Shown: in pieces, positions 182-204 of the stretch | How positions within the stretch are numbered: the stretch's first letter is position 1 | Layout: every line of letters starts with the position of its first letter | Assembly: GCF_003334315.1 (NCBI RefSeq) | Contig: NZ_QOWR01000105.1 | Source of the DNA: Escherichia coli | GTDB taxonomy: Bacteria > Pseudomonadota > Gammaproteobacteria > Enterobacterales > Enterobacteriaceae | Length of the DNA stretch: 3,201 nt | Reading direction: 5' to 3' (one strand) | Program-made: the position numbers and the translations under genes | Notes under the pieces: model-generated | What the model was told of the DNA's origin: nothing | Database searches by the model: none | What the model saw: only the letters and a program-made list of their open reading frames with translations

Positions 182-204
182 ATCAGTAAGTTGGCATCAT
201 CACC
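182..204 (-). repeat. IS1 left terminal inverted repeat (IRL, about 23 bp), inner end of the left IS1 copy
   Basis: Reverse complement is GGTGATGATGCCAACTTACTGAT, an imperfect inverted match to the IRR at 2749-2771 (GGTAATGACTCCAACTTATTGAT). Confidence 0.85.

Follow-up and report, generated by a model that had tools for sequence, protein, structure and literature searches.

Gene content of the window and the two IS1 insertions

The DNA analyzed here, termed the window throughout, is a stretch of 3,201 bases in which part of the Escherichia coli xanthosine locus is enclosed by two partial IS1 elements (Table 1). The two IS1 copies lie in the same (direct) orientation, with the genes of both on the minus strand, and bracket 2,544 bp. 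Such a direct pair would readily allow IS1-IS1 recombination with loss of xapBA. The visible pieces of the two elements do not overlap, since the window shows IS1 positions 1-204 for the left element and 316-768 for the right, with the left terminal inverted repeat (IRL) of the right copy being outside the window. No single IS1 copy has both ends in the window, and the IRL and the right terminal inverted repeat (IRR) seen here belong to two different copies.

Table 1. Features of the 3,201-base window
Feature	Position	Strand	Remark
Left IS1 copy	1..204	-	IS1 positions 204..1, cut at the window edge
IRL of the left IS1, 23-bp terminal inverted repeat	182..204	-	reads GGTGATGATGCCAACTTACTGAT
Variant base, IRL position 8, A for canonical C	197..197	-	T on the plus strand
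Predicted IS1 promoter overlapping the IRL	170..197	-	from a consensus scan
DUF1427/xapX, first 63 nt (21 codons), cut by the left IS1	205..267	-	
xapB (xanthosine permease), frameshifted	320..1572	-	4-bp deletion between window 676 and 677
xapA (xanthosine phosphorylase), intact, 277 aa	1632..2465	-	
yfeN (ompK/tsx-family channel), first 35 nt, cut by the right IS1	2714..2748	+	
Right IS1 copy	2749..3201	-	IS1 positions 768..316, cut at the window edge
IRR of the right IS1	2749-2771	plus strand	reads GGTAATGACTCCAACTTATTGAT

We assigned the two elements to the IS1 group by their 23-bp imperfect terminal inverted repeats starting with GGT (the IRL with one change and the IRR exact), as well as by the near-identity to the body of the reference element, of which positions 205-315 are outside the visible parts. 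In the IS1 group, the insA and insB' frames give InsAB' by a -1 frameshift at an A6C motif. This site falls within IS1 positions 205-315, a part that the window includes for neither copy. The insA start of the left copy (GTG at window position 149) is intact, and the frames are open in the visible parts, namely over the N-terminal 49 codons of insA in the left copy and over the C-terminal 145 codons of insB', up to the stop codon, in the right copy.

Among the native genes, the 52-codon DUF1427/xapX is cut by the left IS1 after codon 21 and yfeN is cut by the right IS1 after 35 nt, and both genes are inactivated. The deletion in xapB corresponds to ATAG (plus strand) when compared with the intact xapB in L001, and yields two ORFs of 313 and 109 amino acids. 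Because 1,102 index blocks of public assemblies contain the same frameshifted XapB product, we regard the frameshift as a widespread allele or pseudogene of a lineage, not as a change private to the source strain. In the xapB-xapX spacer, immediately 3' of the xapB stop codon, a terminator-like hairpin with a trailing T-run was found (window 289-311, minus strand).

Over the region between the two IS1 copies (window 205-2748), the identity is 100% to eight E. coli genomes that share the xapB deletion and have an xap locus free of IS1. A Shigella origin was considered in view of the density of IS1; the unique DNA, at 100% identity, is that of several E. coli chromosomes. Many E. coli genomes share the frameshifted 313-aa XapB fragment but none of them bears the IS1 insertions described here. 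When 5,426 complete E. coli genomes were searched with the entire window, no match was collinear with it; with 111-bp queries, neither insertion junction was found to be contiguous, and the matches were two-piece joins only. Furthermore, there was no exact match to the left junction in the GTDB species representatives, no match to the left or the right junction in metagenome contigs, and no exact match on record to the 60-aa ORF spanning a junction. As the IS1-free loci are fully identical and the junctions are absent from the complete genomes, both insertions are best regarded as recent, and, judging from the searches above, as private to the source strain. An IS1 insertion is flanked by a target-site duplication of 8-9 bp. 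If the two copies arrived by simple insertion, the candidate target duplication is the 9-mer CACGATTGT for the left copy, and the 9-mer at window 2740-2748, which ends in CTTTCCTC, for the right copy. Independent IS1 insertions are present elsewhere around xap in unrelated strains (L001, L002, L005, L008, YSP8-1, and DAX4), in the xapR/xapX spacer, xapA, and yfeN. The overall picture suggests that the xap locus is a recurrent target region for IS1.

The variant base in the left terminal repeat and its frequency

Read on the minus strand, the IRL of the left copy (window 182-204) is GGTGATGATGCC, and this was the sole match to the IRL pattern in the window, with 0 expected in shuffled sequences. 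All of the six annotated IS1 copies of E. coli K-12 MG1655 (IS1A-IS1F) possess GGTGATGCTGCC as the IRL. The two sequences differ at IRL position 8, which is C in all six K-12 references and A in the left copy (hereafter the ends are designated by the base at this position as C8, A8, T8, and G8). In a base-by-base comparison, the left copy matched IS1A/IS1E of K-12 at 203 of 204 positions, with the C to A change at IRL position 8 as the single mismatch, and the right copy was identical to IS1A/IS1E at 453 of 453 positions. The initial annotation had regarded the left IRL as departing from the canonical sequence and the right copy as canonical over 453 bp. The comparison with the K-12 copies agrees with both statements, and the canonical IRL given there was also right, with IS1A through IS1F all being C8.

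To the IRR, the IRL is identical at 18 of 23 positions with the canonical base and at 19 of 23 with A8; the IRR itself has A at position 8. The weak promoter PIS1 partly overlaps the IRL (PMC12428005), and both InsAB' and InsA bind the two IS1 ends (PMC12428005, PMC12903888). In the left copy, the predicted promoter starts with the variant base, which opens the -35 hexamer ATGCCA (CTGCCA in the canonical end), and continues with a 16-nt spacer and the -10 hexamer TATGAT. The match to the -35 consensus is 4/6 with either C8 or A8. Since the consensus base at this position is T and matches neither C nor A, a large effect on expression is not predicted. No published statement, footprint, or mutagenesis on position 8 was found in the literature searched (classic IS reviews and IS1 end-mapping papers aside), and a full-text search for the 12-mer with the variant base retrieved unrelated primers only. 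In function, A8 is probably near-neutral.

The frequency of each base was examined in the 5,426 complete E. coli genomes by megablast with a 35-mer of IS1 positions 1-35 and a 28-base exact word. Any other base at position 8 shortens the contiguous match to 27 bases, below the exact word, so that the search finds only the ends with the queried base. The canonical C8 was found at no fewer than 67,228 places in 4,953 genomes, with no more than 40 counted per record. For A8, there were 2,076 places, spread over 339 genomes with at most 37 in any one of them, and T8 was found at 333 places in 182 genomes. G8 in the otherwise exact 35-mer was found in 16 records, and together with the approximately 1,350 additional records in which G8 is combined with one further mismatch, there are about 1,370 G8 records (3,188 places in total, the 16 exact records included). 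Two fetched G8 copies with one further mismatch (L028 and L029, both at 1001-1768) read GGTAATGGTGCC, apparently the usual form of the G8 end. In these copies G8 is accompanied by A at position 4, and they are diverged isoforms with 32-61 differences from IS1A.

Altogether, IRL position 8 is naturally polymorphic, with all four bases found, and A8 makes up about 3% of the IS1 left ends in E. coli. This allele was also found on at least 97 plasmid records, E. coli plasmids and Salmonella IncHI plasmids among them, and there was no match to the 29-mer of the A8 IRL in the GTDB species-representative genomes. Thus, A8 is an ordinary minority allele that is already in the databases and is neither rare nor private.

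Transposition of A8 copies and the isoforms compatible with the window

Ten A8 copies from ten records were checked for target duplications. Eight of them, at eight loci in eight strains, are flanked by perfect 9-bp target duplications, and these duplicated copies span both IS1B-like and IS1A-like backbones. The remaining two are a copy abutting another IS1 and a copy truncated by IS26 (L027). Target duplications of 9 bp also flank the T8 copy in L030 and the G8 copy in L028. Judging from these natural A, T, and G copies with target duplications, position 8 appears permissive for transposition. A8 is evidently a tolerated and transposition-competent polymorphism, to the extent that genome comparison can tell, as there are many copies per genome that occupy different sites and bear normal target duplications. 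A target duplication marks the past transposition of a copy that is now A8, not strictly the presence of A8 at that time; with up to 37 A8 copies per genome, however, it is implausible that the same mutation occurred repeatedly after the insertions. The occurrence of A8 on two backbones could reflect recurrent mutation or gene conversion instead of one spreading lineage.

Three of the sampled A8 copies have no target duplication, namely two exact copies of the IS1A type (L031 601-1368 and L032 601-1368) and an IS1B-like copy (L016 1501-2268). These three adjoin truncated genes or another IS1. Their missing duplications point to IS1-mediated deletions or rearrangements in IS1-rich genomes, which are unrelated to the IRL end.

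As the full-length query, we used the IS1 of L005, which shares the xapB allele with the window, after changing C8 to A. The resultant sequence is identical to both visible pieces. Exact matches to this IS1A-type A8 isoform (768/768) were found in 25 complete chromosomes at different sites, and three of the copies were checked directly. NZ_AP027829.1 (ECZP248, ST12468), of which the xap locus is 100% identical to the unique DNA of the window, is among the 25 chromosomes and carries the isoform at 3805522-3806289 with the transposase WP_094096600.1. As far as the two pieces can be compared with known elements, they are fully compatible with one existing isoform, and the window does not show two. 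The initial annotation had regarded the flanking copies as apparently different isoforms. The window gives no grounds for this conclusion, as the two pieces never overlap and the IS1A-type A8 isoform fits both, albeit the claim may still be right. In its favor, A8 copies are the minority in CP53 and HS30-1, two genomes with this isoform, and most A8 copies sampled elsewhere have an IS1B-like backbone. Little weight can be given to the accompanying proposal that a difference in isoform argues against a recent duplication of a single copy. In each of the related genomes examined, between 25 and more than 40 places are listed for IS1, and neighboring copies are therefore expected to be independent insertions from a mixed pool. 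An origin of the two copies other than by recent duplication is what would be expected by default, rather than a discovery.

Interpretation of the variant end and comparison with known systems

We propose that the window very likely contains the left end of an ordinary IS1 with a minority IRL allele, C to A at position 8, that was inherited from the donor copy and is competent for transposition. The left copy probably arrived already with A8. The allele would spread by the normal transposition of IS1, with InsAB' binding to the two terminal repeats and 9 bp of the target being duplicated. A8 would be tolerated if recognition does not strictly depend on the base at position 8, which is suggested by A at this position in the IRR and by T8 and G8 copies that also transposed. 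In the source strain, an A8 copy would have been inserted into xapX, and a second IS1, which is of the IS1A type at least in its right two-thirds, into yfeN.

This proposal can accommodate two backbones for the left copy. We consider an IS1A-type backbone to be slightly better than an even guess, and there is about an even chance that the two full copies differ essentially only at position 8, whereas their complete identity is improbable. The other candidate is the IS1B-like A8 lineage, which is a sub-case of the donor-inherited allele as far as the variant end is concerned and a rival only on the backbone. If the left copy belonged to this lineage, the two copies would truly be different isoforms with at least eight differing positions (8, 262, 298, 301, 304, 393, 396, and 444); the IS1B-like backbone has C262, C298, C301, and T304 where the IS1A type has A/T262, A298, T301, and C304, and A393, C396, and G444 where the right copy, being of the IS1A type there, has C393, T396, and T444. 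The IS1B-like backbone is the commonest carrier of A8 (nine of the ten sampled copies), the annotation of the top 30 A8 matches is the IS1B family in 23 and IS1A in 5, and IS1B-family elements are annotated near xap in two genomes that share most of the unique DNA (H6 and H12). The IS1B-like A8 copies are indeed identical to the window over positions 1-204, but these positions cannot separate the two backbones. Moreover, 25 chromosomes, one of them from the strain with the identical xap allele, harbor the IS1A-type A8 isoform, and the IS1 copies adjoining xap in the relatives of the lineage, L005 and L008, are all of the IS1A type. Considering both sides, we regard the IS1B-like backbone as a realistic but minor possibility.

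Three other accounts disagree with the donor-inherited allele on the origin or the meaning of A8. The base might have changed in the source strain after the insertion of a C8 copy, and it is true that a single base is changed in 204 bases otherwise identical to IS1A and that the T8 and G8 variants show position 8 to be mutable. Such a private mutation is nevertheless unlikely, as A8 outnumbers T8 six-fold and can amount to 37 copies per genome, a strain sharing the xap allele already has exactly this isoform, and the very recent insertions left little time for a mutation. An artefact of sequencing, assembly, or polishing is conceivable in a repeat that is present in tens of copies in the related genomes, since polishing can mis-assign bases between copies. 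Mis-assigned reads, however, would mostly bring in the majority base C, not A, and 339 independently finished genomes have the same base, at 2,076 places in total, so that we consider an artefact to be very improbable. The remaining account takes A8 as an adaptive, gain-of-function change that makes the two ends more symmetrical and drives IS1 expansion by raising the binding or expression of the transposase or by relaxing the autorepression by InsA. The gain in IRL/IRR identity brought by the base that the IRR also has, the 21-37 A8 copies in some genomes, and the position of the variant base at the start of the predicted -35 hexamer are in line with this account. So is IS1F, for which higher similarity between IRL and IRR has been proposed as the cause of higher mobility when transposase is supplied (PMC12903888). 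On the other hand, the -35 match stays at 4/6, and A8 accounts for only about 3% of the ends overall and is in the minority even in two genomes with the IS1A-type A8 isoform, CP53 (4 of about 25) and HS30-1 (5 of at least 40). An adaptive role of A8 is thus hardly to be expected; if true, A8 could help drive IS1 bursts in the genomes holding 20-37 such copies.

A8 is a neutral-looking marker allele of a very well known insertion sequence and of little importance by itself. A8 and C8 coexist in the same genomes, and the base may serve as a lineage tag for the donor copy when IS1 bursts are reconstructed. The natural data on position 8 also add slightly to the map of the IS1 ends and to the hypothesis that mobility is tuned by the similarity between IRL and IRR (PMC12903888).

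Among known systems, a composite transposon of the Tn9 type comprises cargo between two direct IS1 copies. Such a unit, once mobilized, would be framed as a whole by one target duplication and occur at more than one genomic location. The window resembles Tn9 in that two direct IS1 copies surround 2,544 bp (xapX'-xapB-xapA-'yfeN), but the bracketed DNA differs from a cargo in being collinear native chromosome at the native locus. A mobilized Tn9-like composite was rejected as unsupported, as the putative cargo sits at its native site and is 100% identical to the IS1-free loci, and the junctions are in no other record searched.

IS1A/IS1E of K-12 is the 'consensus' and regularly mobile isoform of IS1 (PMC12428005, PMC12903888). 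The window shares with this isoform 203 of 204 bases on the left, 453 of 453 on the right, the same 23-bp inverted repeats, the insA start, and the insB' frame, and departs from it by A instead of C at IRL position 8 of the left copy. Over the initial 204 bases, A8 included, the window agrees fully with the IS1B-like A8 lineage (WP_095033700.1; ETEC H10407, ATCC 8739, and WCHEC050613, among others), but the right copy of the window differs from this lineage at 393, 396, and 444. The IS1A-type A8 element (WP_094096600.1) occupies other chromosomal sites than the copies in the window, but it is identical to both visible pieces and is carried by a strain with the identical xap locus.
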